From: Candidatus Poribacteria bacterium
GTDB taxonomy: Bacteria; Poribacteria; WGA-4E; WGA-3G
Assembly: GCA_965205015.1 (NCBI GenBank)
Contig: OZ242029.1
Span: 2,368,001 to 2,432,000, forward strand
DNA: 64,000 bases
Direction: 5' to 3'
Positions 46,190 to 58,484 of the stretch are shown here, piece by piece (position 1 is the stretch's first letter; each line of letters starts with the position of its first letter). The position numbers and the translations under genes are program-made. The notes beneath the pieces were generated by a model. That model worked only from the letters and a program-made list of their open reading frames with translations, searched no databases and had not been told where the DNA came from.

Positions 46190-46819
46190 TTATTTGATCC
46201 GTTTGAAAGTGCAACGAATCCCGCCGCTTCGAGCCCAACCGTCAGAAGTCAATACCATCTTTCCGTACACCGTCAGGTACAATTTGTCATCCGTCACCGA
46301 GATACCGAGCCAATTATCTGCAGCGGTCTTCATGGAAACGGTATCTGGGTTTTTCAATCTACTTGCGGACATATTCGTTAAAAAATCGTAGAGTGGCAAG
46401 CCTGTGTCCCGAAAGACCCGCAGATACGGAAGTGGTTCATCGCCGTAACGCTGGGAGGCGATTTTGAAACTTCCCGTCACCTCCGTGTCTCCATTTTTAC
46501 TGCGATATCGACGGAATACGTTTCGGTCCATAAAAAATTCAAGCGTGAGATTTTTACGAGTCCTTGCCTGGCGTTCATACTTTAACGCCGCTATCTCTTC
46601 ACTGAGGTCGCCTTCGGCAACCTCCATATCCAGAAATTGCCATTTGCCAATCAGTTTCTCGGTTAAGTCAGTTTCCAACCGCCGCGGGTCGTGTTTTCTG
46701 AGCGCCTCTTCATGGGCTGCCCGTCGTCGATCGCGTTCGTTCTGCATCTCTTGATACTGTGCACTGGTGCACCCTACAAAAATCAATATTCCGAAGGTGA
46801 AGACGCTTAATATTTTCAT
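46190..46819 (-). CDS. Lipocalin-like lipoprotein paralogue 2
   Basis: FVGC lipobox; IGKWQF; KNLTLEFF; GWARSGGIRCTFKRI. Confidence 0.8.
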   Translation of the reverse strand: MKILSVFTFGILIFVGCTSAQYQEMQNERDRRRAAHEEALRKHDPRRLETDLTEKLIGKWQFLDMEVAEGDLSEEIAALKYERQARTRKNLTLEFFMDRNVFRRYRSKNGDTEVTGSFKIASQRYGDEPLPYLRVFRDTGLPLYDFLTNMSASRLKNPDTVSMKTAADNWLGISVTDDKLYLTVYGKMVLTSDGWARSGGIRCTFKRIK

Positions 46820-47445
46820 TTTCCAATCCTTTCAAAATAACACCGCACGCCACCGCTTTGCACCCAGCCCTTAGGACTTAATTGCATCTTGCCGTGCATT
46901 GTGAGATATAACCTATCTTCTGTAACCGAGAGACTGATCTCATTCGCTGTATCAAGTCCAGACGCACCCGACAAACCAAGCGTTCTTCCATCGGAACTTG
47001 CTGCGAAGAGGAGTTGTGACATCTCCGGACCGGAGCGTCTGATGAACCGAATAAACGGAAACGGTTCGTCGCCGTATCGCACAGTAATGACAGTGAATTG
47101 ACCCAACACCTCCGTGTGACCGTTTTCGCCACGGTAGTTGTATATCCCCTTTTCCTCGAAGAATTCAAGCGTGAGATTCTTCAAGTCAAGCGCATAAAGG
47201 GCGGCTTTGGTCTCCGCGATCTCCTCGCTGACACTGCTTTCCTCTATCTCGAGGTTCAGAAACTTCCACTTCCCGAGGAGTGTGTCGGTTACATCGGTTT
47301 TGAGTGTGAGTTCGTTGTGTTCTTCGCGAAGGTCTTCGTAATTCTTGAGCAGTTGATCGCGTTCCGCTTGCATCTTTTGGTACTCGGCACTCGTACAACC
47401 GGCGAACATCAGAGCGCAGATACCAAAAACGATCCAGATTTTCAT
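46816..47445 (-). CDS. Lipocalin-like lipoprotein paralogue 1
   Basis: FAGC lipobox; LGKWKF; KNLTLEFF; GWVQSGGVRCYFERI. Confidence 0.8.
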   Translation of the reverse strand: MKIWIVFGICALMFAGCTSAEYQKMQAERDQLLKNYEDLREEHNELTLKTDVTDTLLGKWKFLNLEIEESSVSEEIAETKAALYALDLKNLTLEFFEEKGIYNYRGENGHTEVLGQFTVITVRYGDEPFPFIRFIRRSGPEMSQLLFAASSDGRTLGLSGASGLDTANEISLSVTEDRLYLTMHGKMQLSPKGWVQSGGVRCYFERIGK

Positions 47446-47500
47446 CAGTGCTTCTCCTTATTATCGGCATACATAGGGGTGCCCTTCCCGTTACAGCTGT

Positions 47501-47529
47501 ATTATACCAGAGCAACTTGTAAATGACAA
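47501..47529 (-). promoter_or_regulatory. sigma70-type promoter of the lipoprotein array
   Basis: TTGTCA-N17-TATAAT on the minus strand. Confidence 0.7.
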
Positions 47530-47557
47530 ACCTTCAGTTTGTATTCTTAGAAACCTA

Positions 47558-48538
47558 CTATTCCCATTTCAATTCGCTCCATGTCGTTGTTAACAATTGT
47601 GATTGGGGTGTAACAGGCAACGCCGCTGGGTCAAACCAATCGGCATTCCAATTTTCCTCATTATGCGTAATTTGTATTGTTCTGCGATTACCCAATGTAA
47701 GTGTGAAAAGTTGACTCTTGTTGTCAACATCTTTTTCATAAATGAGTTCGTCCCCACGCGGACTCCAAGCCGGTCGATCCGCACCCGAATTTTTAGGTAC
47801 AACCGCTTTCATATCGCTTCCGTCAGGATTCACAACGTAAATTGTCCCCTTCTCACCTGCCATCCATGGATTTTCAGCAAAGGCGATTTGATCGCCTGAT
47901 GGAGACCAAGCGGGCCTCGTCAAACGTAGTCGAGGCTTTGGAAGGATTTCCTTTCGTTTTTTCCCCTGCGGAGATATTAAAATTAGTGGATAGCCCGGTA
48001 GATCTTCTATTAGTACTGGACCCTTCGGTGCCTTTGGGCTAAAAGTAAAGGCAATCGTTTCACCATCGGGCGACCATGCAGGATACCCACCGAACTTACC
48101 TGTTTTTGCGACAGGGATTTCCTGTCGTTTATTAATGTTAGCAACATAAAGTGTCGCTTCATTATATCGGAGGTAAGCAAATCTTTCACCATCCGGGCTC
48201 CAGGCTGGTTCAGATCTATCGACCGTGCTTTTAAACACCTTCTCTACATTTCTACCATCGGCATTCATGAGATACAAATCACGAACACCGTCGCGATGTG
48301 AAACAAAGAGAATTTGCTCTCCAGTTGGAGACCAAACAGGTTCATAATCGCGTGTAGGATGGTCTGTTAATCTGATAACTCCACTCCCGTCTGGATTCAT
48401 TAGGTAGATTTCCAGATTCCCATCGCGGCTCGATGAAAATACAATTTTCGCTGTTTCAGGGGCTTTGGCATCAACGGACAAACCACCGTTGCAGAGCTGT
48501 AGCAGAATCAGTAAACACAAAACTAATGTGAGTTTCAC
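47558..48538 (-). CDS. TolB-like (PD40) beta-propeller protein
   Basis: PxWSP repeats; C-terminal LPVTPQSQLLTTTWSELK. Confidence 0.88.
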   Translation of the reverse strand: MKLTLVLCLLILLQLCNGGLSVDAKAPETAKIVFSSSRDGNLEIYLMNPDGSGVIRLTDHPTRDYEPVWSPTGEQILFVSHRDGVRDLYLMNADGRNVEKVFKSTVDRSEPAWSPDGERFAYLRYNEATLYVANINKRQEIPVAKTGKFGGYPAWSPDGETIAFTFSPKAPKGPVLIEDLPGYPLILISPQGKKRKEILPKPRLRLTRPAWSPSGDQIAFAENPWMAGEKGTIYVVNPDGSDMKAVVPKNSGADRPAWSPRGDELIYEKDVDNKSQLFTLTLGNRRTIQITHNEENWNADWFDPAALPVTPQSQLLTTTWSELKWE

Positions 48539-48678: not shown

Positions 48679-51114
48679 TCAGAATTCAAGCGTCAATCCG
48701 AAATAAATGATCCGAGGGAGTTGTTGGGCATCAAAGACTTCACGTTCAATGCCAACCTCCTGACCTTGGACGTCAAGCGTTGCCTCTTCAAAAATGAACT
48801 GTATCGTATTCTTGCGATTGTATACATTCAGAACATCAAGGAATCCACCGACACGTAATCCCCAGAGTCTCCATTTATAACTCACCCGCAAGTCCAACTT
48901 ATGATACGGTGCGAGTTCTGTGCTTAATTGTTCATCGGCACTCGCCAAAAGCGGGTTCAGTCCACGCGTTACGGGGTCTTGGATGAGAACGATGGAGCTG
49001 ATAGGTACTTCCGAGGTGCCGCTGAGATACTGCCATTTCGCGCCGATCTCAAAATTCGGTGTAAAGTTATAGTTGGCGACTACACTGACGATGTGGGTAT
49101 TATCAAAGAGGTAAGGTTGATAGGCGGTGTCTGGAGTCTCGCGTCGTTCAGCGTGTGTATACGCATACGAAATCCAACCGAAGAACTTATCTGGGATCCG
49201 ATGCCGTAAGAAGACCTCTGCACCGCCGACGTACGCCGTCCCTTGATTGAGGTAGTTCGAGACTTCATCGGGTGTTACCAGCTTCCGTGCGTCCTTGTAA
49301 TAGGTGGCAAGTTTGAGTTCGGTCCGCGATGAGAGCTCGTGTTCTAATTCCATGATATAGTGCCGCGTGAGACTCGATTCCAACGTCCGGTTGCCGTTTT
49401 CTGCTAACAGGTGAGAGGGTTGTGGACTCTGTTCATAATGTCCATACGCGAAGCGGAGATTAGAACCGTTTGTCAGTGTGAAACTCACACTGCCTCGCGG
49501 TTGAACGGAGACCTGTTCTGTCACATTCAGGTAATCCAATCGAACACCGAGAGCGACAGATAAAAACGAAAGCGGGTCATATCGTCCCTGCACATACCCT
49601 TCAGTCCGATAAAAATCGTGTCCGAATTCATCGTGTACCTCCTCGAAAGGGGACTCCTGAACGACTTCACCGTCAGGTGTCTCCGTTGTATAACTTAGAT
49701 CAGAATCTGACTCGAAATTTTCCTCAACCCAGCCGTTTTCAGAACTTTTCGCCGGATTGAAGGCGTAGAGAAAACCTGACTCCAATTGAAGTTTAGGGTT
49801 TAACCTGTAGGTGACATCCTCGCGCAGAGTATAAACGGGGGCATTAATCTTTATCTCATAGTGGGCGAAGTTCGCCTCATAACTTGAAGGGTCCACCCTG
49901 CCCTCAATGACGGTGTAACTCTCCCCGGTCACAGCTTGGAGGTCGATATTCAGAAAATTATAGGAACGGGTCAAAGAGAGATGAGAAGTAAGATTTTCGG
50001 TGAAATTTGAGCGGAGATGCAGCCCCTGTCCATTGAACCCGTTTTTGAAAAGGACACTGGAACGTGCAGCATCTTCATAGGGAATTTCGGCTTCCATATA
50101 GGGAATTTCCTCTACATTTTGTAATTCTTCGTCCTCTTCTACCAAGGTCGCGTTTTCCTCAATCCTAAAATGGTCAGTTGCAGCGAAGGCGTTCACTGTG
50201 AGATGATGTTTTTCGCCAAGCGTCTGGGCAAATTTGAGTTGATAATCTGAGAAATAGGGCAATTGCTGTGCCGTTCCCGTCTGACTCTCAATGATCGGAC
50301 CAGCGATGAGGTCTAAGTAACTGCGCCGTCCAGAGGCGGAGATATATCCCTTGTCACCGATTCTGGCTTCAAGTAGCCCTTCAGAATAGAGGATGTTTAG
50401 GTTAAATTTCCCATCTAACCGCTCTTCAATGCTGTCCCGTGCATGGATGTCAAGCACAGCTTGTGAGTCCAGTCCGAATTCGGCACCGTAACCCCCGGCG
50501 TAGATGTCAATTGTCTCAATCGTTTCAGAACTGATCGTCGAAAGTAAACCGCCCCAGTGGAAAGGGTAACCGAGAGGCGTTCGGTCAAGATAATACAAAT
50601 TTGAGCCGGGTTCACTTCCCCGAATGTAGAGGACCCCGAAGTAATCGTTTGGGATACCGATACTCGGAAGCGTCGTTAAACCTTTGAGTGCGTCATTGGC
50701 GGTCCCTGGAATCCGTAGGAGTTCACTCCCACGGATTTCTGTGCGACTCACCGTCGGTGGAAGGCGTTTCCCTTCTACGACAACTGCTTCGAGTTTAAAG
50801 GCAACGCCGAGGTGTATTTTGACTTCAGTGGTATCGCCGCTACTGATGTTCACCGACATTTTTGTAGGTGCCATTTCCGCGGGGTGTGTTACGACAAAGG
50901 TATATGTGCCTTCAGGCAGTTCTGTGAATTGGAAGACTCCGTTTTCATCGGTTTTTTGGTGTTGGTCGGTTTCGAGGATATGAACATCAGCGTCTACGAG
51001 GGTTTTGCCTGTACTTCGCTGATAGACGGTTCCTTGAATATCGCCGGTTTGGGCTAGGACAGAGAGTGGCATGGTGATAAACGCAAATAGAACTATGACG
51101 AGTTGTGGTTTCAT
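48679..51114 (-). CDS. TonB-dependent receptor
   Basis: Carboxypeptidase-regulatory-like N domain, plug IRGS..N, GGYGAEFG, LNVYNRKN, C-terminal LTLEF. Confidence 0.92.
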   Translation of the reverse strand: MKPQLVIVLFAFITMPLSVLAQTGDIQGTVYQRSTGKTLVDADVHILETDQHQKTDENGVFQFTELPEGTYTFVVTHPAEMAPTKMSVNISSGDTTEVKIHLGVAFKLEAVVVEGKRLPPTVSRTEIRGSELLRIPGTANDALKGLTTLPSIGIPNDYFGVLYIRGSEPGSNLYYLDRTPLGYPFHWGGLLSTISSETIETIDIYAGGYGAEFGLDSQAVLDIHARDSIEERLDGKFNLNILYSEGLLEARIGDKGYISASGRRSYLDLIAGPIIESQTGTAQQLPYFSDYQLKFAQTLGEKHHLTVNAFAATDHFRIEENATLVEEDEELQNVEEIPYMEAEIPYEDAARSSVLFKNGFNGQGLHLRSNFTENLTSHLSLTRSYNFLNIDLQAVTGESYTVIEGRVDPSSYEANFAHYEIKINAPVYTLREDVTYRLNPKLQLESGFLYAFNPAKSSENGWVEENFESDSDLSYTTETPDGEVVQESPFEEVHDEFGHDFYRTEGYVQGRYDPLSFLSVALGVRLDYLNVTEQVSVQPRGSVSFTLTNGSNLRFAYGHYEQSPQPSHLLAENGNRTLESSLTRHYIMELEHELSSRTELKLATYYKDARKLVTPDEVSNYLNQGTAYVGGAEVFLRHRIPDKFFGWISYAYTHAERRETPDTAYQPYLFDNTHIVSVVANYNFTPNFEIGAKWQYLSGTSEVPISSIVLIQDPVTRGLNPLLASADEQLSTELAPYHKLDLRVSYKWRLWGLRVGGFLDVLNVYNRKNTIQFIFEEATLDVQGQEVGIEREVFDAQQLPRIIYFGLTLEF

Positions 51115-51212
51115 TCAGTGGCTGTGACCTCCGCTTCGGGTATTGACATAACAATTCAACGCTCAATTGCGTTTTTGGGTTTACTCAAGAGTTATTTTTC
51201 CACGGTATGCAG

Positions 51213-51249
51213 AAAAGCCGAGCGTGTAACATACATACGCTCGGCTTTG
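51213..51249 (-). terminator. Intrinsic terminator between the two receptors
   Basis: aaagccgagcgt-loop-acgctcggcttt. Confidence 0.7.
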
Positions 51250-51297
51250 TCAATGTCGAAAATGGATAAGTGGATTTGATATGTGAGTGGAGTATTC

Positions 51298-53673
51298 TCA
51301 AAATTCAACTGTTAAACCGATGTAGGGGATAATCGGAAATTGCGGTGCTTCCTCTACCCCGTCGCCCACAGGACTATAAAACTTGATGACATTTTTGCGG
51401 TTATATACGTTCAAAATTTCAAGGAATGTGCCTATCCGCCATCCGTCTCGATTCCATGTTTTACTGACGCGTAGGTCTAACCGGTGATAGGTCGGCAACG
51501 ATGCCAGCGACCTGGTCCCTTCTTCCGTTTGAATATTACTGACAAGCGGTTGCATGCCGCGTGTCGTCGGGTCTTGAATGAGAAGGATTTTGCTGACATG
51601 TGCTCCCGATGTTCCGTTTGAATACTGCCACTTGGCACCAACCTCTAAAGTTGGACTGATGTTATAGTTGCCGACGAGGCTGATAATGTGTGTGTTATCG
51701 AAGATATAGGGTTCGTAAGGGACATCAGGATGCGTGCGCTGCTCCCTATGCGTCCATGCATAAGACAGCCAACCGAAAAACTTTTCGTTGACGCGATGCC
51801 GCAGGAACGCCTCGGCACCACCGATGAACCCTGTCCCTTGGTTAAGGTAATTGACTGTAGCCAGTAAATCGGTATGAAGAAGATCGGCATTATCCGCCGT
51901 TACCAAATCCTGCAGACTTTTGTAATAGGTTGCGAGTTTAAGTTCTGTCTGTGATGAGATTTCGTGTTCGAACTCCATAATATAATGGCTCGCAACGCTG
52001 GATTTTAAGTCTCTATTTCCATTCTTCCCGAGTACCTGATACGCCAACGGACTCTGTTCATAAGTCCCGTAAGCGAACCGGAGCGTGGAATTGTTAGGAA
52101 GTTTTACGCTCAGGCTGCCGCGCGGTTGAACAGAGAGTTCCTCCGTTAAATTGAGATAATCGAGTCTCACGCCGAGCGCAATTGACAGAAAAGAGAGGGG
52201 ATCATAACGTCCCTGTAGATAGCCTTCCGCGCGTTGAAAATTGTACGTGAATTCATCGTGGACCTTTTCAAAACGGCGTATTTCATAAGTGCCATCGTCG
52301 TAAGCGTAGAACTCTTCATCTTCTTCCAATTCAAAACGAACCTCTGGATCTGTCACTTCCTCATCAACGGGAAACTCCCGGTCTTCAAAGCTGCTTGCTG
52401 GGCTGAATGTGAAGAGCAAACCCGGTTCAAGTTGGAATTTCGGTGTGAGTTCGTAGGTTATATCTTCGCGGAGCGTATAGACAGGCACGTTAGCCTTTAG
52501 GTTGTGGTGCGCATATTCCGCGAAAATGAAGACGCGTTCGCCCTTCTCGTTAATATCAAAATTTTGACTAACAGCTGCCTGAAAATCCATATTGAGAAAG
52601 GTGAAGGCACGGGTCAAGGAGAGATGAGATGTCAGATTTTCAGTGAACTCGGAGCGGAGATGGATACCTTGTGCTTCAAAACCGTTTTTGAAATAAGCAT
52701 CAAGGTCGAGCACCCCATCTGTTTCTAATACAATGTTAAAATGGTCGTTTGCCCCGAATGCATTGAGCGTGAGGTGATGTTTTTCGGCGAGTTCGTAGAC
52801 GAATTTGAGCTGATAATCGGAGAAGTAGGGTGACACCCAATCGTCTACAAACATTCCAGCGATAAGATCAAGGTAACTCCGCCGACCAGCGGCATGGAAG
52901 TAGCCTTTATTGCCAATGCGACCCTCAAGCATTCCTTCGGAGTAGAGGACGTTAAGATTAAACTTACCGCTCAACCTCCCTTCGTCCATCCGGTCGCGGG
53001 AACGGAGGTCAAGGACAGTTTGGGACTCTAACCCGAATTCAGCACCGTAGCCCCCAGCGTATATATGGATATCGTCAATAATATTGGAACTCATCGTTGA
53101 GACAAGCCCACCGTAGTGAAACGGGTACCCCAGGGGTGTTCTGTCAAAATAGTAGAGCGTGTCTCCGGGACTACTGCCGCGAATGTAGAGGATACCGAAG
53201 AAATCGTTTGGAATGCCGATGCTTGGAAGGGTGGTCAATCCTTTGAGTGCGTCGTTGGCAGTGCCGGGGATACGAAGGAGTTCACTCCCGCGCATCTCCT
53301 TACGACTCACCGTCGGAGGGAGACGTTTCCCCTCTACGACAACCGTTTTGAGTGTAACGGCTGCACCGAGGTGTATTTTGACTTCGGTGGTATCGCCGCT
53401 GCTGATGTTCACCGATACTTTTGTAGGTGCCATTTCCGCGGGGTGTGTTACGACAAAGGTATATGTGCCTTCAGGCAGTTCTGTGAATTGGAAGACTCCG
53501 TTTTCATCGGTTTTTTGGTGTTGGTCGGTTTCGAGGATATGAACATTAGCATCTATGAGAACTTTCCCTGTGCTTCGCTGGTAGACGGTGCCTTGAACAT
53601 CGCCGGTTTGGGCTAAGGCAGAGAGTGACATGATGGTGAACACAAGCGTAACTATAACGAATCTCAACTTCAT
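51298..53673 (-). CDS. TonB-dependent receptor (paralogue)
   Basis: Same architecture; C-terminal LTVEF. Confidence 0.92.
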   Translation of the reverse strand: MKLRFVIVTLVFTIMSLSALAQTGDVQGTVYQRSTGKVLIDANVHILETDQHQKTDENGVFQFTELPEGTYTFVVTHPAEMAPTKVSVNISSGDTTEVKIHLGAAVTLKTVVVEGKRLPPTVSRKEMRGSELLRIPGTANDALKGLTTLPSIGIPNDFFGILYIRGSSPGDTLYYFDRTPLGYPFHYGGLVSTMSSNIIDDIHIYAGGYGAEFGLESQTVLDLRSRDRMDEGRLSGKFNLNVLYSEGMLEGRIGNKGYFHAAGRRSYLDLIAGMFVDDWVSPYFSDYQLKFVYELAEKHHLTLNAFGANDHFNIVLETDGVLDLDAYFKNGFEAQGIHLRSEFTENLTSHLSLTRAFTFLNMDFQAAVSQNFDINEKGERVFIFAEYAHHNLKANVPVYTLREDITYELTPKFQLEPGLLFTFSPASSFEDREFPVDEEVTDPEVRFELEEDEEFYAYDDGTYEIRRFEKVHDEFTYNFQRAEGYLQGRYDPLSFLSIALGVRLDYLNLTEELSVQPRGSLSVKLPNNSTLRFAYGTYEQSPLAYQVLGKNGNRDLKSSVASHYIMEFEHEISSQTELKLATYYKSLQDLVTADNADLLHTDLLATVNYLNQGTGFIGGAEAFLRHRVNEKFFGWLSYAWTHREQRTHPDVPYEPYIFDNTHIISLVGNYNISPTLEVGAKWQYSNGTSGAHVSKILLIQDPTTRGMQPLVSNIQTEEGTRSLASLPTYHRLDLRVSKTWNRDGWRIGTFLEILNVYNRKNVIKFYSPVGDGVEEAPQFPIIPYIGLTVEF

Positions 53674-53779: not shown

Positions 53780-55852
53780 TTAGTGCCTCTTAACCGTTTC
53801 CAAAGCGTCCATTAAAAATATATGGTATTCTTTTGCATCCATATAGGGTTTATTCGATACTCCGTAAGGTAAATGATCTATCAACTCCAACTGGGGTGAT
53901 AGGACGAAAGCGTTTACGGAATAATCTGGGTTGTGTGTGAGAGTCTTTTCATAGGTTTCGGTGATCCGTGTGGCTAATTTGCTTATCTGATCACCCTTTG
54001 CTCCATTCTGAAGTTCGGGTAGATCGCTTAGTTGAAGGAACACACTGACATAGTGTTTATTGAGTAACTTGATGACCTTAGAATCAGAGAGGACAAATGT
54101 CCTCAAGGTTTTACCGGTCCCGCAGCAAGATTCATCGTCGAAAGCACCCTTTGTTAGAACGACGTGAATTGGGCGCTTCTTGGCTTGTGCTTGTGCAACG
54201 ACCCCTTCAATAGGGCACCTCTCAATTTCTGAAAACTTGTAGAAGGCAGCCTCTAACATATCCTTTGCTTCTTTTTCAGTGATGGCAGTCTTCCAAACGA
54301 TATCACGCTGATCCTGTGTGTTCCGTCCGACAAGTTCCATGCGCGGAACGAAAACCGTATCTGCTAAGTTATGGGCGTTGAGGTCAACATTGGTATTGCG
54401 AGGTGGAAGATAGAGCCAAAACTCGCGGATCGTGCCGTATTTCCGGTTGAGTATGAGTTGCCCGGTAAATTGTGCTGGGGTAAAGTAAGCACCCGCCTCT
54501 CCATCAAGTAGGAATTCGGCATGGATTCTGAAGACGATTTCGACGTAATTTGGCGAGACTGCCCGTATGCACGCATAGGCACCTTCTGACTCAAACCGAC
54601 GTGAACGAAACAGCGTCAAGCCAAAAAATTCCAGGACAAACTCTGTGCCTGGATTGCTATGCATCTCCGCAGTCGCTCCGGGATGAAATTGACGAAGAAA
54701 CGGTATAATGTTTTGAGTATCAAGGGTCCATAGGTGTCCTACGGTGAAACTTTTCTTCGGGAAAAAGACTCTGAAAGCGTCCGTCCCATATTCTTGGCTC
54801 GGGTGAGCCGGTGAAAGATTATGAAAGAGGGCAGCGTGCTTGGGCGAGTTAAGTGCGGTATCAGCAATCGGGGCCCAATATGCATCCACCTGTATTGTCT
54901 TATTTCTCTTTGGGGAATCCCCTTGGGTGTCAGATGTTGAGTCCTTCTGAGAAATCTGCGGATCCCCATTACCCTTTTCATCCTCGGACACAGTCTGTCC
55001 AATCTGATTTCGGACGGCGGGTTTAGCATCTATATTATGGATGACGGGTGCATCCACAATTTCAATTGTGGGTTGAGATGCGGCTTCAAAGTTATAAGGT
55101 TTCTGAAAGCGAACAAGATACCGATTGCTGGTCCCTAACAGGAGTATCACCAAGATAGTAAACGCACCAACAGCGATCCATGGAAGCAGGGGTTTCGTAG
55201 CCGTTGGTGGTGTGGGATCGATATCGGCGACGTGCCGCATAATGTTCTGTGTGAGATTTTCTGATAACTGAACCCCACCAAGGGTTTCCTGAATCAAAAG
55301 TTCTTGATCTGCTTGCAGGCGCTTTCGCGCACGCCGGAGCCGACTGGCAATCGTGTTCACCGATACCCCTAAGAAGTTACCTATCTCCTTGAGGGTCATT
55401 TCACCGAGATAGTAGAGCGTTACGATAGTGCGCTCGCTCTCTGGTAGTTTTTCAAGAAGTTTTTCAACGAGTTCATACCGACGTTCGATGGCTTCTGCCT
55501 CGCGCTGTTCGGAGACGTAACGTTCATAATCTGACTTTTCTGTTTCTTTCACAGGTGTCTCCTCCAACGATTGAACTGTTGGTTTCCGTTTGCGCCTCCA
55601 AGCAATGCAGTGCCGATTGGCGATAACATAGAGCCACCCCGCAAATTGATCGGGATTTTTGAGCGTTGAGAGTTTTTTATACACCTGAAGGAAGGTGTCT
55701 TGTGTAATCTCTTCAGCATAATGGAAATCCCCTATCTTCCGCCACGCAAGTGCATGAACGCTTCTTTGGTACTTTTGGACTAAGCGGCTAAACGCGGCTT
55801 CGTTGCCCGACAATATTTCGTGAATCAATTGGGCATCGTCTTCTCTGTTCAT
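53780..55852 (-). CDS. ECF sigma-70 factor fused via a TM helix to a selenoprotein N-like domain
   Basis: Region 2 (AEEITQDTF, FAGWLYVIANR) and region 4 (LPESER..EIGNFLGVSVNTIASRLRRAR); TM LPWIAVGAFTILVILLLG; SelN-like FRIHAEF, FTPAQFTG, GAFDDESCCGTGKTLR; RBS aggag before ATG 55852. Confidence 0.88.
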   Translation of the reverse strand: MNREDDAQLIHEILSGNEAAFSRLVQKYQRSVHALAWRKIGDFHYAEEITQDTFLQVYKKLSTLKNPDQFAGWLYVIANRHCIAWRRKRKPTVQSLEETPVKETEKSDYERYVSEQREAEAIERRYELVEKLLEKLPESERTIVTLYYLGEMTLKEIGNFLGVSVNTIASRLRRARKRLQADQELLIQETLGGVQLSENLTQNIMRHVADIDPTPPTATKPLLPWIAVGAFTILVILLLGTSNRYLVRFQKPYNFEAASQPTIEIVDAPVIHNIDAKPAVRNQIGQTVSEDEKGNGDPQISQKDSTSDTQGDSPKRNKTIQVDAYWAPIADTALNSPKHAALFHNLSPAHPSQEYGTDAFRVFFPKKSFTVGHLWTLDTQNIIPFLRQFHPGATAEMHSNPGTEFVLEFFGLTLFRSRRFESEGAYACIRAVSPNYVEIVFRIHAEFLLDGEAGAYFTPAQFTGQLILNRKYGTIREFWLYLPPRNTNVDLNAHNLADTVFVPRMELVGRNTQDQRDIVWKTAITEKEAKDMLEAAFYKFSEIERCPIEGVVAQAQAKKRPIHVVLTKGAFDDESCCGTGKTLRTFVLSDSKVIKLLNKHYVSVFLQLSDLPELQNGAKGDQISKLATRITETYEKTLTHNPDYSVNAFVLSPQLELIDHLPYGVSNKPYMDAKEYHIFLMDALETVKRH

Positions 55853-55870
55853 GAGGGACCCTCCTAATCT

Positions 55871-56014
55871 AATGAACAAATAATAGGGTTATAATGTTAA
55901 AGACGCGATTTTATGTCAGGAAATGTGCATTCTGAAGAAAAAAATGAACAAATAATAGGGTTATAATGTTAAAGACGCGATTTTATGTCAGAAAATGTGC
56001 ATTCTGAAAAAATG
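55871..56014 (-). repeat. 72-bp tandem duplication containing two putative ECF promoters
   Basis: aatgaacaaataatagggttataatgttaaagacgcgattttatgtcag(g/a)aaatgtgcattctgaa starts at 55871 and again at 55943. Confidence 0.9.
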
Positions 56015-57220: not shown

Positions 57221-58363
57221 CTACACTGAAAAGGGATGAATCTGTTCAAAATTCCCACCGACGATGTGCGTCGGGTCTACACCCATCCACTGCTCAAGGA
57301 GCGTTCCGTAAATACCCCGGAAGTCGATGGTGTGCTCAAGATCCTCGCCGTGTACCCAACGGGAGGGGTCGAGAGACGGATATTCTGAGTAGAGTCCACC
57401 CTTCACCCGATCGCCGATAATGAAGGCACCACCGCCGGTTCCATGGTCAGTGCCGCTGGCGTTGTCTCGGATACGTCTGCCGAATTCCGTGAAGACGTAC
57501 ATGACGATCTCTTCAGAGGCATCATGCGCCCGTAAATCCGTGAAGAACGCTTGAATGGCTTCCGTGAGTTCTGTCAGGAGTCGTGGGTGCGTCGGGACCT
57601 CATTGGCGTGGTTATCATAACCGCCGTGCTGCGTATAGAAAACACGTGTGCCGAGATCAGCGAGATGGACCCGTGCGACATCCCGCAGGCTCTTTGCAAT
57701 CGAGTTTTGTGGATATTCCACTTCGGAGGTATACATCGCTGGTGCTTTCTTGAGTTCATCGGCACCTTTAATCACATCTAACCCGGTTTGGCTGAGGTAG
57801 TCCATCACGATACCCGTGCCGACCGTACTACTGTACATCCCTTTGAATATCTCAAGAGTTTTCGTCCGTTGTCCTTCATCACCGATGCTGGTCATCAATC
57901 CGTAGTTGTCCAAATCGCCAACAGAGGTGACGGGGATGCCGGAAAGGGCACAGGCGCGGGGGAGTCCCTGTCCGAAACTGATACCCGTTAAGACGTTGTG
58001 GCTCTGCGGATCGAGTTCTCGGACGAGCCTGCCGACCCAACCTTCATCACCGATTTTCAGGGGTTCACAGGTGTGCCAGATATCCATCGCCCGGAAATGC
58101 GAGCGGTTTGAATCGGGGTAACCGATTCCCTGTACAACAGCGACCTCCCCGGCGTCAAACATCTTTTTCAGTGGGGCGGCCTGCGGGTGCCAGCCCAGCG
58201 CCTCGTCTACCTCTGAAGGTAGCACATCTTCCGCTTTGATACCGACGACTGGACGGGAATCGTGATAGATCCCGCTTGTGTAGGGAATGAGTGTATTCAT
58301 GAAGTCGTTGCCACCCGAAAGTTGCACAACGACAAGGACTGGGGCTTTCTTAGTCGTACTCAT
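57221..58363 (-). CDS. DUF1501 domain protein
   Basis: QLSGGND, NRSHF, GGYDNH, TEFGRR, GTDHG. Confidence 0.92.
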   Translation of the reverse strand: MSTTKKAPVLVVVQLSGGNDFMNTLIPYTSGIYHDSRPVVGIKAEDVLPSEVDEALGWHPQAAPLKKMFDAGEVAVVQGIGYPDSNRSHFRAMDIWHTCEPLKIGDEGWVGRLVRELDPQSHNVLTGISFGQGLPRACALSGIPVTSVGDLDNYGLMTSIGDEGQRTKTLEIFKGMYSSTVGTGIVMDYLSQTGLDVIKGADELKKAPAMYTSEVEYPQNSIAKSLRDVARVHLADLGTRVFYTQHGGYDNHANEVPTHPRLLTELTEAIQAFFTDLRAHDASEEIVMYVFTEFGRRIRDNASGTDHGTGGGAFIIGDRVKGGLYSEYPSLDPSRWVHGEDLEHTIDFRGIYGTLLEQWMGVDPTHIVGGNFEQIHPFSV

Positions 58364-58484
58364 GTCAATCTCTCCTATCGGTAGGCACACTTCATTAGCG
58401 TTTAGAATTTAATAAGGGTATTCTAAATTGGATAACCCAATATATCTTCTCATCTTCACGCAAGTGTGCCAGCCAGCCAAAACG

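Follow-up and report, generated by a model that had tools for sequence, protein, structure and literature searches.

Why would a bacterium join an ECF sigma factor to a domain resembling animal selenoprotein N (SELENON), a protein whose loss causes congenital myopathy in humans, and is such a fusion real? The gene that raises this question lies in the window, the 64,000-nucleotide stretch of a Candidatus Poribacteria contig analysed here, and occupies 53780..55852 of the minus strand (690 codons plus stop). Its open reading frame spans 53780..55879 (-), the start ATG at 55852 yields a protein of 690 residues, and the frame is uninterrupted. The order of sigma factor, transmembrane helix and SelN-like domain is kept with its synteny in five independent Poribacteria assemblies (L001-L005), the sigma fusion is present in 24 of 36 related protein clusters, and the window protein is 82-95% identical to its orthologues over the whole length. 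The rare Cys form of this protein and a duplicated promoter segment might raise the suspicion of a chimeric assembly, a frameshift artefact or a pseudogene, but neither turned out to give real support; against such a reading stand the uninterrupted frame, the repetition of architecture and synteny, the end-to-end identity to orthologues and a confident model of the domain. Hence, the check for a chimera or frameshift came out negative, and we regard such an artefact as hardly conceivable.

The N-terminal part of the protein has the composition of an ECF (group 4) sigma factor, with predicted sigma2 and sigma4 regions and no match to the r1 or r3 families, which describe sigma1.1 and sigma3, in Pfam or NCBIfam. 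Region 2 covers residues 24-90 (55583..55783 (-); Pfam PF04542, Sigma70_r2, E 1.9e-12), and region 4 covers residues 127-180 (55313..55474 (-); PF08281, Sigma70_r4_2, matching residues 127-179, 1.4e-15; PF04545, 1.4e-13). The Pfam family Sigma70_ECF also matches the protein (E 4.6e-7), as does the NCBIfam model TIGR02937, sigma70-ECF (E 5.4e-30; 104 bits vs a cut-off of 42.9). A sequence search of the PDB with the window protein returned ECF sigma factors only, with SigW (5wuq) as the top match (3.1e-21). These matches agree with the ECF sigma factor of regions 2 and 4 named in the original prediction.

Sigma4 is followed by a cytoplasmic linker (residues 181-221; 55190..55312 (-)) with the paralogue-conserved pattern GGVQLS-NLT-NIMRxVAD...KPLLPW. 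In the structure model the linker contains two helices, residues 181-192 and 200-210, whose pLDDT of 83-89 is similar to that of the sigma core. Just about 40 residues separate sigma4 from the membrane, which is too short for a canonical anti-sigma domain, and neither Pfam nor NCBIfam gave an anti-sigma match. The single hydrophobic helix that had been proposed was recovered by a hydropathy scan as the only hydrophobic segment, residues 222-240 (55133..55189 (-); Kyte-Doolittle mean 2.48), and 11 of 14 sampled paralogues have a helix at the corresponding place. The positive-inside rule is not decisive for its orientation, with two K+R before the helix and three after; we place the C-terminal domain outside the cytoplasm because the sigma domain needs the cytoplasm. 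The helix leads into a putative extracytoplasmic juxtamembrane segment (residues 241-285; 54998..55132 (-)) with the pattern RFQKPYxFEA-SxPTIEIVDAP...KPxVRNQxG, in which F249, Q250, P252, Y253, T262, K277, P278, R281, Q283 and G285 are invariant across paralogues; it is a candidate processing site. Translation and the paralogue alignment delimit a variable spacer rich in Ser, Asp and Gln (residues 286-320; 54893..54997 (-)). The N-terminal structure model is unreliable past residue 215, with pLDDT below 50 for residues 215-231 and 239-300 and three of five models poor.

The remaining 370 residues form the SelN-like domain. A phmmer search of 1.84 billion representative proteins gave 325 matches at E<=1e-3, and its matches to animal selenoprotein N range from E 4e-27 to 1e-18. 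Among the matches are animal proteins whose clusters bear the name 'selenoprotein N' or 'selenoprotein N-like', such as those of hagfish (P0137, 4.8e-22), Schistocerca (P0144, 2.3e-21), Biomphalaria (P0158, 5.9e-20) and a cluster with Stylophora (P0182, 1.3e-18). BLASTP against Selenoprotein N of the coral Stylophora gave E 5e-31 over 334 columns at 26% identity, and the nearest ESM Atlas cluster is 'Selenoprotein N' (score 0.94). Pfam and NCBIfam gave no family for the C-terminal domain alone, for an orthologue read through its TGA or for an animal member. The motifs listed in the original prediction are all found in the translation, and the animal SELENON motifs that it listed are matched by animal sequences (P0100, P0165 and others), for some of whose clusters NCBI or UniRef gives the name 'selenoprotein N'. 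The SelN-like domain is, on these alignments, a genuine SELENON homologue over its whole length, including both of its subdomains.

The AlphaFold model of the domain (pLDDT 93, pTM 0.89) comprises a beta subdomain and a thioredoxin fold. The beta-rich subdomain (residues 321-523; 54284..54892 (-); pLDDT 93) is delimited by homology and carries the motifs FLRQFHPGAT, GAYACIRAVS, FRIHAEF, TPAQFTG, NVD and PRMEL. Foldseek found no convincing PDB match to it (TM below 0.12 was disregarded). The thioredoxin-fold subdomain (residues 524-690; 53783..54283 (-)) matches 3ira (4e-4) and DsbH 2ju5 (6.7e-4), followed by the thioredoxin folds 7tkv, ERp19 1sen, DsbD-C 1vrs and AGR3 3ph9. No SELENON structure appeared among the PDB sequence or Foldseek matches. 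In the model the Cys-Cys pair (domain residues 256-257) lies just before the active-site helix 258-267, and the predicted thioredoxin-like fold would carry the redox motif. DsbH, ERp18-19, AGR and DsbD-C are the best structural matches to this subdomain and likewise place the active site at the N-terminus of the first helix, but they have CxxC where the window family has an adjacent C-U or C-C, share 10-18% identity with it and lack the large beta-rich subdomain that precedes its thioredoxin fold.

Compared with animal SELENON, both subdomains are homologous, the motifs are collinear and the redox pair is at the same place. The predicted layout would also be alike, with a cytosolic N-terminus, one transmembrane helix and the domain in an oxidising compartment, which is the ER lumen in animals and presumably the periplasm here. 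In contrast, a full ECF sigma factor stands here where SELENON has a short cytosolic tail, and the domain of the window protein starts right after the spacer without an EF-hand; Pfam finds no EF-hand in the window protein, while one is present in the animal sequence P0125. The redox motif of animal SELENON is S-C-U-G according to PMC12839072. The orthologues of the window protein have S-C-U-G/A, whereas the window protein itself has Cys in place of Sec.

The substitution maps to Cys576-Cys577 of the SCCG motif (54122..54127 (-), TGC TGC). As originally predicted, the second Cys, residue 577, occupies the Sec position with the codon TGC at 54122-54124, and the window protein is by its codons a Cys homologue rather than a selenoprotein. 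The in-frame TGA versions that had been sought were found at the Sec site in 36 of the 36 related loci that cover it, comprising 7 of 7 Poribacteria loci and all 29 site-covering metagenome loci. The Poribacteria orthologues read SC-TGA-G/A in all seven loci, and the coding frame is conserved for about 113 codons past the TGA. The sequences of 21 of the 24 clusters with a sigma fusion stop at the Sec site, two do not contain the site and one is a Cys form (P0002). Besides the window protein, Cys forms are P0002, P0039, P0050, P0053, P0056, P0067 and P0072.

A hairpin with a GGUC loop lies about 20 nt downstream of the TGA, with some 27-31 nt between the U of UGA and the loop, and it shows compensatory changes in two loci (L023 and L037). 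Synonymous sites are under strong constraint here: all 23 distinct loci use GGT for the Gly of the loop, vs 62 of 542 codons (11%) elsewhere in the same genes, a difference whose significance is overstated because the statistic treats related loci as independent. The sigma-fused orthologues of Poribacteria have the loop AGUU rather than GGUC. RNAalifold detected only weak covariation across the seven Poribacteria sites, since the ungapped alignment leaves the two types of hairpin 1-2 nt out of register; the hairpin signal became clear only with the 30 metagenome loci. The element resembles the E. coli fdhF SECIS in being a stem-loop within the coding sequence shortly after UGA, and the GGUC apical loop matches that of fdhF; the stem sequence differs, as does the AGUU loop of the Poribacteria fusions. 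Its position inside the coding sequence in the bacterial relatives also differs from that of eukaryotic SECIS elements, which sit in the 3'-UTR. Genes for selA, selB and tRNA-Sec pass the cut-off in 3 of 3 relatives' genomes. The in-frame TGA, the constrained hairpin and this machinery together indicate that the relatives form a real bacterial selenoprotein family with an in-frame SECIS.

In the window, a hairpin relic (GAGGAC-AUUU-GUCCUC; 54089..54104 (-)) is found 20 nt after the former UGA when compared with the orthologues. Its stem is retained, and the loop G present in the Sec-encoding orthologues (AGUU) is gone. As the window protein nests among Sec orthologues in the tree, its Cys form is evidently derived from Sec.

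The bacterial SelN-like family is large, with 325 representatives at 50% identity. By the ESM Atlas summary only, Planctomycetota are the commonest group in the wider family. Most members are stand-alone and secreted or lipoproteins; the domain is sigma-fused in 2 of 150 representatives, and a tblastn search with both sigma types gave no match in 30 metagenome loci. Conservation in the family is highest at the C-U/C-C pair and its surroundings: C256 in domain numbering hardly ever varies, and the sequences of 110 of 150 representatives stop at ...D(E/Q)SC. In the tree, the fused P0072 groups as sister with P0053 (99*), which stands alone, while the sister group of the Poribacteria fusions consists of Poribacteria paralogues that likewise stand alone (100*). 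On this tree the sigma-SelN fusion, which is rare, arose at least twice.

Where the Poribacteria domain came from can be judged from the same tree. Poribacteria are known as sponge symbionts, and a recent horizontal acquisition from the sponge host, as the original prediction had allowed, would fit with the other eukaryote-like domains borne by Poribacteria paralogues. Sponges do have SelN, since Amphimedon SelN is listed in a table of PMC3473315. However, all 15 animal rows fall into a single clade (100*) whose stem is long (0.62), and the Poribacteria clade nests among other bacteria inside a separate 61-row bacterial clade (99*), far from the animals, in a tree that is unrooted and contains no sponge sequence. 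The large size of the bacterial family and its bacterial in-frame SECIS also argue against a transfer from the host, which we consider very improbable.

How the domain is used in Poribacteria is suggested by its paralogues. In one genome (G001), 36 matches have at least 45% identity to the sigma part, nearly all of them in open frames of about 400-1060 residues, and the SelN fusion in Poribacteria is one of about 36 'sigma-TM-sensor' paralogues per genome. The linker, transmembrane and juxtamembrane motifs are common to 11 of 14 sampled paralogues, whatever their sensor domain. Ten sensor domains were assigned to BNR/sortilin (six), LRR (two) and Kelch (one), with one left unassigned. As BNR/sortilin, LRR or Kelch domains would sit on this cassette in about 35 paralogues per genome, the SelN domain seems to be one interchangeable sensor of many.

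We consider it probable, with confidence somewhat above even, that the protein is a single-pass tethered ECF sigma factor in which the SelN-like domain serves as a one-component input module and the sigma factor is freed by proteolysis. The sigma2-sigma4 core would face the cytoplasm, while the linker, transmembrane helix and juxtamembrane cassette would anchor the protein and leave the C-terminal 370 residues outside the cytoplasm, where they would receive the input of this one-component system. The input states may be a vicinal thiol/selenol vs a disulfide/selenenylsulfide, or engagement with an oxidised envelope substrate. Whether the conserved juxtamembrane segment is cut would depend on the state of the domain, and after this cut the sigma domain would be set free by a site-2 protease of the RseP type. 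The freed sigma factor would transcribe a regulon that plausibly includes its own gene and adjacent TonB-receptor-like genes.

Release by regulated proteolysis is proposed from the analogy with IutY and ECF52, the conserved juxtamembrane cassette and an RseP-type protease in relatives, where a Peptidase_M50 gene of this type (about 580 residues) was found in 3 of 3 genomes. According to PMC8999054, Prc and RseP release IutY of Pseudomonas putida (ECF243), a fused sigma/anti-sigma hybrid, and proteolytic activation is suggested for another fused hybrid, SCO4117 of Streptomyces coelicolor (ECF52). Both resemble the window protein in having an ECF core followed by one or more transmembrane helices and a large extracytoplasmic domain in one polypeptide. 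They differ in their recognisable anti-sigma domain (FecR-like, or zinc-finger/ZAS), to which the window protein has no match, and its SelN-like sensor domain and conserved juxtamembrane motif are distinct from theirs.

Alternatively, the sigma factor might work while tethered to the membrane, in a ToxR/CadC-like manner without proteolysis, with the SelN domain modulating it via oligomerisation or a transmembrane conformational change. This would agree with the lack of an anti-sigma domain between sigma4 and the transmembrane helix, and with linker helices that are strongly conserved in paralogues and modelled as well as the sigma core, so that the linker may have a defined structure and serve in coupling. 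On the other hand, the fused ECF sigmas studied experimentally are activated by proteolysis, as suggested for SCO4117 as well, in the accessible text of PMC8999054. Conservation of the periplasmic juxtamembrane motif does not depend on which sensor follows, as would be expected of a common site for processing or recognition, and RseP-type proteases are present in relatives. We therefore hold permanent tethering to be distinctly improbable and favour release by proteolysis.

The nature of the signal is a separate matter. Instead of acting as a redox switch, the SelN-like domain might mainly bind a ligand or protein, or might be an enzyme of envelope repair, in which case the signal would follow substrate binding or domain damage and turnover, presumably as in the LRR, Kelch and BNR paralogues, whose binding-type repeats sit on the same cassette. 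The beta-rich subdomain without an enzymatic fold match is compatible with this role, and the predominance of stand-alone members suggests a primary enzymatic or binding function. Against it, the redox pair is the best conserved part of the family, the use of Sec points to redox chemistry, and two independent ECF sigma fusions suggest that the state of the domain is worth sensing. The binding or repair role is not mutually exclusive with a redox switch; as the main function we regard it as unlikely, though less so than permanent tethering.

A candidate target or operon partner lies downstream in the same orientation. This TonB-dependent-receptor-like gene (CarboxypepD_reg and Plug; 51298..53673 (-)) begins 106 nt past the stop codon with no terminator-like site between, and it is syntenic in L001-L005; an insertion of about 115 nt precedes it in L001, L003 and L004. 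No ECF-type promoter was identified in the region, and sigma-70-like consensus matches were at chance level (5 found vs 4.0 +/- 2.0 in shuffles). Upstream conservation is uninformative because the orthologues differ too little in this region. The window carries a duplicated promoter segment.

In the accessible parts of the literature searched, neither a bacterial family of SelN-like proteins nor the Poribacteria sigma fusions were found described. The earlier mention of a Poribacteria SelN-like orthologue to which the original prediction refers left no trace there, and the family was not found in the prokaryotic selenoproteome papers, as far as these were accessible. A 2026 review (PMC12839072), in its accessible part, lists SELENON orthologues just in vertebrates and some invertebrates.

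We tentatively suggest, with confidence short of even, that SELENON, rather than being an animal invention, belongs as the branch found in eukaryotes to a large family of bacterial selenoproteins, most of them secreted, whose domain natively senses and transmits the extracytoplasmic redox state. The independent ECF fusions, at least two, would mean that redox sensing is the native job of the domain. If so, human SELENON would be recast as a signalling sensor, beyond a repair reductase alone. The natural Cys form should then be easily expressed and could provide the first structure and biochemistry of the fold of this disease protein; a full-length bacterial homologue in Cys form makes fold, redox potential and substrates testable in ordinary expression hosts. 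The family itself is a widespread group of bacterial selenoproteins with a sharply conserved SECIS that is modelled by neither Pfam nor NCBIfam. For Poribacteria, some 36 predicted tethered ECF sigmas per genome with swappable eukaryote-like sensors may be relevant to how these symbionts sense their sponge host.

The window gene on the minus strand (53780..55879) is an open reading frame without interruption, and from the ATG at 55852 it encodes 690 residues. Residues 1-180 form an ECF sigma factor recognized by Pfam and NCBIfam, with Sigma70_r2 at residues 24-90 and Sigma70_r4_2 at residues 127-179 (Pfam). Sigma70_ECF of Pfam is also matched, TIGR02937 of NCBIfam scores 104 bits with a cut-off of 42.9, and the closest solved structure by sequence is SigW (5wuq, E 3.1e-21). 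The sole hydrophobic segment in a hydropathy scan spans residues 222-240 (mean 2.48). Pfam finds no anti-sigma domain in the approximately 40 residues that separate sigma4 from the membrane. Past residue 190, no Pfam or NCBIfam family is matched with either the whole protein or residues 321-690 alone as query. In the model of residues 1-300, the sigma core is confident and the linker helices 181-192 and 200-210 have pLDDT of 83-89; pLDDT is below 50 over 215-231 and 239-300, and three of five models are poor.

Residues 321-690 were searched with phmmer against 1.84 billion cluster representatives, giving 325 proteins at E<=1e-3, of which 238 reach <=1e-10 and 41 reach <=1e-30. Among the 150 matches listed, the clusters of hagfish P0137 (E 4.8e-22), Schistocerca P0144 (2.3e-21), Biomphalaria P0158 (5.9e-20), P0182 (including Stylophora, 1.3e-18), and P0173 (including Gryllus) are named 'selenoprotein N' or 'selenoprotein N-like' in NCBI/UniRef. 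For wombat P0100 (3.9e-27), Nematostella P0169, and Ciona P0184, the cluster name is just 'EF-hand domain-containing protein'. Stylophora Selenoprotein N aligns by BLASTP with 26% identity over 334 columns across both halves of the domain (E 5e-31), and an independent ranking in the ESM Atlas places a 'Selenoprotein N' cluster at the top (score 0.94). The animal SELENON motifs listed in the original prediction are present in the animal sequences retrieved. At the level of sequence, the C-terminal domain is thus a true SELENON homologue, and the architecture of the protein together with this homology is near certain.

The AlphaFold2 model of the domain, built from an alignment of 74 sequences, has a pLDDT of 93.0 and a pTM of 0.89. 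A beta-rich subdomain (approximately domain residues 1-200) is followed by an alpha/beta subdomain, in which the CC pair (domain residues 256-257) comes after strand 242-247 and before helix 258-267; in the predicted fold, this is the classical thioredoxin active-site position. The Foldseek matches in the PDB are confined to the second subdomain and are all thioredoxin-fold proteins, namely 3ira (4e-4), DsbH 2ju5 (6.7e-4), 7tkv, ERp19 1sen, DsbD-C 1vrs, and AGR3 3ph9. No solved SELENON structure surfaced among the PDB matches of the sequence search or Foldseek.

The TGC at 54122-54124, singled out earlier as the selenocysteine (Sec) position, does encode residue 577, the latter Cys in SCCG, and the in-frame TGA versions sought in its relatives are abundant. 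Sigma-fused clusters account for 24 of the 36 in the first homologue search; 21 of them terminate exactly at '...ESC', two are fragments without the Sec site, and only P0002, 95% identical to the window protein, has SCCG. At the DNA level the window's second TGC is TGA in all seven Candidatus Poribacteria loci, where frame conservation continues for approximately 113 codons beyond it. Scanning metagenomes with a narrower alignment added 30 distant loci (28-45% identity, GC 43-76%), 29 having TGA at the site and one stopping short of it. Likewise, 110 of the 150 listed HMMER representatives are gene calls stopping at the Sec-site residue (DQSC 48, DESC 45, others 17), and 16 read through it (7 animal, 6 bacterial with CC, and 3 with other residues). 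The genomes of all three relatives contain selB, selA, and tRNA-Sec above cut-offs, with tRNA-Sec adjoining selB. The bacterial relatives are therefore, by their codons and gene content, selenoproteins. As the tree places the window protein within Sec-encoding orthologues, its Cys is a derived state reached by a single TGA-to-TGC change.

Several family members depart from this pattern. The stand-alone lipoprotein-type paralogue at L007:5878-7125 has, besides the Sec TGA, an in-frame TAA at domain residue 313, perhaps through pseudogenization or an error in the assembly. At the Sec site P0059 shows SCWG, which might reflect gene prediction with TGA=Trp, and it carries an additional C-terminal domain; P0026 begins with the post-Sec tail and a P0059-type extra domain, followed by a second SelN domain ending in ESC, and may represent tandem genes or a two-domain protein. 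In P0115 (1101 aa), TPR and squalene-cyclase-like regions precede a SelN domain ending in DDEAC. P0030-P0037 have a signal peptide and keep the N-terminal motifs FLRQFHPGAT and GAYACLRAVSP and the PRMEL region, with the beta subdomain split by an approximately 250-aa coiled-coil insert and without the thioredoxin part and Cys/Sec site.

In most loci a SECIS-like hairpin, GAGRGCG-GGUC-CGCUCUC, is found 20 nt past the TGA, and changes on both strands maintain it in the distant loci L023 (GUG...CAC) and L037 (GCGAGCG...CGCUCGC). For the loop Gly, 23 of 23 distinct main-type loci use GGT, which makes up just 62 of 542 Gly codons (11%) in the rest of these genes, and GCG, CCG, and CTC codons are likewise fixed. 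The nominal codon probabilities treat loci as independent and thus exaggerate the significance, but the direction is unambiguous. These fixed codons indicate selection on the RNA. In the 'LRARVL' subgroup the stem differs, yet GGUC is still presented. With LRAR(V/A)L after Sec, a shorter stem, and GGUC approximately 2 nt further downstream, its loci (L027, L029, L035, L036, L039, and L048) look like a second SECIS solution inside one family. The sigma-fused Poribacteria orthologues carry the variant GAGGGC-AGUU-GUCCUC and the window GAGGAC-AUUU-GUCCUC, so the loop G has gone together with the UGA.

The fusion is rare. A sigma fusion is seen in only two of the 150 listed representatives (the Poribacteria cluster and P0072, which is high in GC), and the 30 metagenome loci all lack a sigma domain, both within the SelN-type gene and next to it. 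The 20 metagenome genes examined mostly have a short N-terminal extension with a signal-peptide-like hydrophobic stretch, and the median extension ahead of the domain is 44.5 aa among representatives ending at the Sec site; hence the bacterial family is probably secreted or periplasmic. A quick unrooted IQ-TREE tree (LG+G4, 121 rows, 243 columns, no sponge sequence) included only rows covering most of the pre-Sec-site region, with 35 of the 150 representatives excluded as partial. P0072 groups with the stand-alone P0053 (support 99) and the Poribacteria fusions with their own stand-alone paralogues (100), and the sigma fusion thus has at least two origins. The animal sequences form a single 15-row clade (100, stem 0.62) apart from the 61-row clade containing Poribacteria (99), which argues against the host-symbiont transfer originally considered, if recent; the unrooted tree gives the older bacteria-eukaryote link no direction.

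The window and the five Poribacteria fusion loci L001-L005 share the gene order DUF1800-like, DUF1501, NHL-repeat protein, sigma-SelN, one or two TonB-receptor-like genes with CarboxypepD_reg N-termini, and tandem small lipoproteins. The DUF1501 gene (57221-58390, minus strand) adjoins an approximately 490-aa, putatively DUF1800-like gene, and the pair is syntenic across all orthologous loci. Downstream of the NHL gene lies a hairpin with a T-run, and no terminator-like site was found between sigma-SelN and the receptor gene. The window stretches 48679-53673 and 46816-48538 (minus strand) hold two paralogous receptor genes and, after them, a PD40 beta-propeller protein and tandem approximately 209-aa lipoprotein genes matching no Pfam family; L001, L003, and L004 have a single receptor gene and an intergenic insertion of approximately 115 nt. 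Upstream of sigma-SelN, at approximately 55891-56008 (minus strand), a promoter-proximal tandem duplication (72-nt period, 49 nt exact) doubles the sigma-70-like matches CTGACA-17-CATTAT and TTCAGA-17-TAAAAT. It is missing from L001-L005 and might change, perhaps increase, how the Cys-form gene is expressed.

The first 200 residues of the window protein match 51 places at E<=1e-10 in G001, the complete genome of a Poribacteria relative; 36 are at >=45% identity, nearly all within open frames of approximately 400-1060 aa. Eleven of 14 sampled paralogues have a TM helix at the matching position (three lack it), a common linker GGVQLS-NLT-NIMRQVAD...KPLLPW, and a common extracytoplasmic segment RFQKPYSFEA-SEPTIEIVDAP...KPxVRNQxG. 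Similarity extends to approximately window residue 285 and diverges beyond. The sensor parts of ten scanned TM-bearing paralogues are BNR/sortilin propellers (6), LRR (2), Kelch (1), and unassigned (1); two further BNR fusions adjoin the stand-alone SelN paralogues at L006 and L007. Three such paralogues lie less than 25 kb from the SelN fusion at G001:C1 5.22-5.25 Mb.

We lean towards an explanation in which the sigma core would be tethered to the membrane, the SelN-like domain outside the cytoplasm would report envelope redox or substrate state, and cleavage of the conserved juxtamembrane segment and then by an RseP-type protease would free the sigma factor, with the adjacent receptor genes as obvious candidate targets. 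All three relatives' genomes contain a Peptidase_M50 gene of the RseP type. PMC8999054 describes proteolytic release of IutY and proposes it for ECF52, which would serve as the model here. The proteolytic redox switch stands at about the same probability as two alternatives taken together: that the sigma factor is active while remaining tethered, and that the sensor operates through binding rather than redox state.

Transmembrane C-terminal extensions on ECF sigma factors are already known (PMC8999054 among the sources), and two SELENON reviews (one of them PMC12839072) do not mention a prokaryotic orthologue. The literature searched describes no SELENON-like sensor domain on a sigma factor, no Poribacteria sigma-TM cassette family, and no bacterial family of SELENON selenoproteins with a SECIS of its own, though a prior description may exist elsewhere. 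The approximately 36 ECF sigma-TM-sensor genes per Poribacteria genome, undescribed as far as this literature goes, are on genomic evidence a lineage-specific expansion of one-component sigma factors with eukaryote-like domains.
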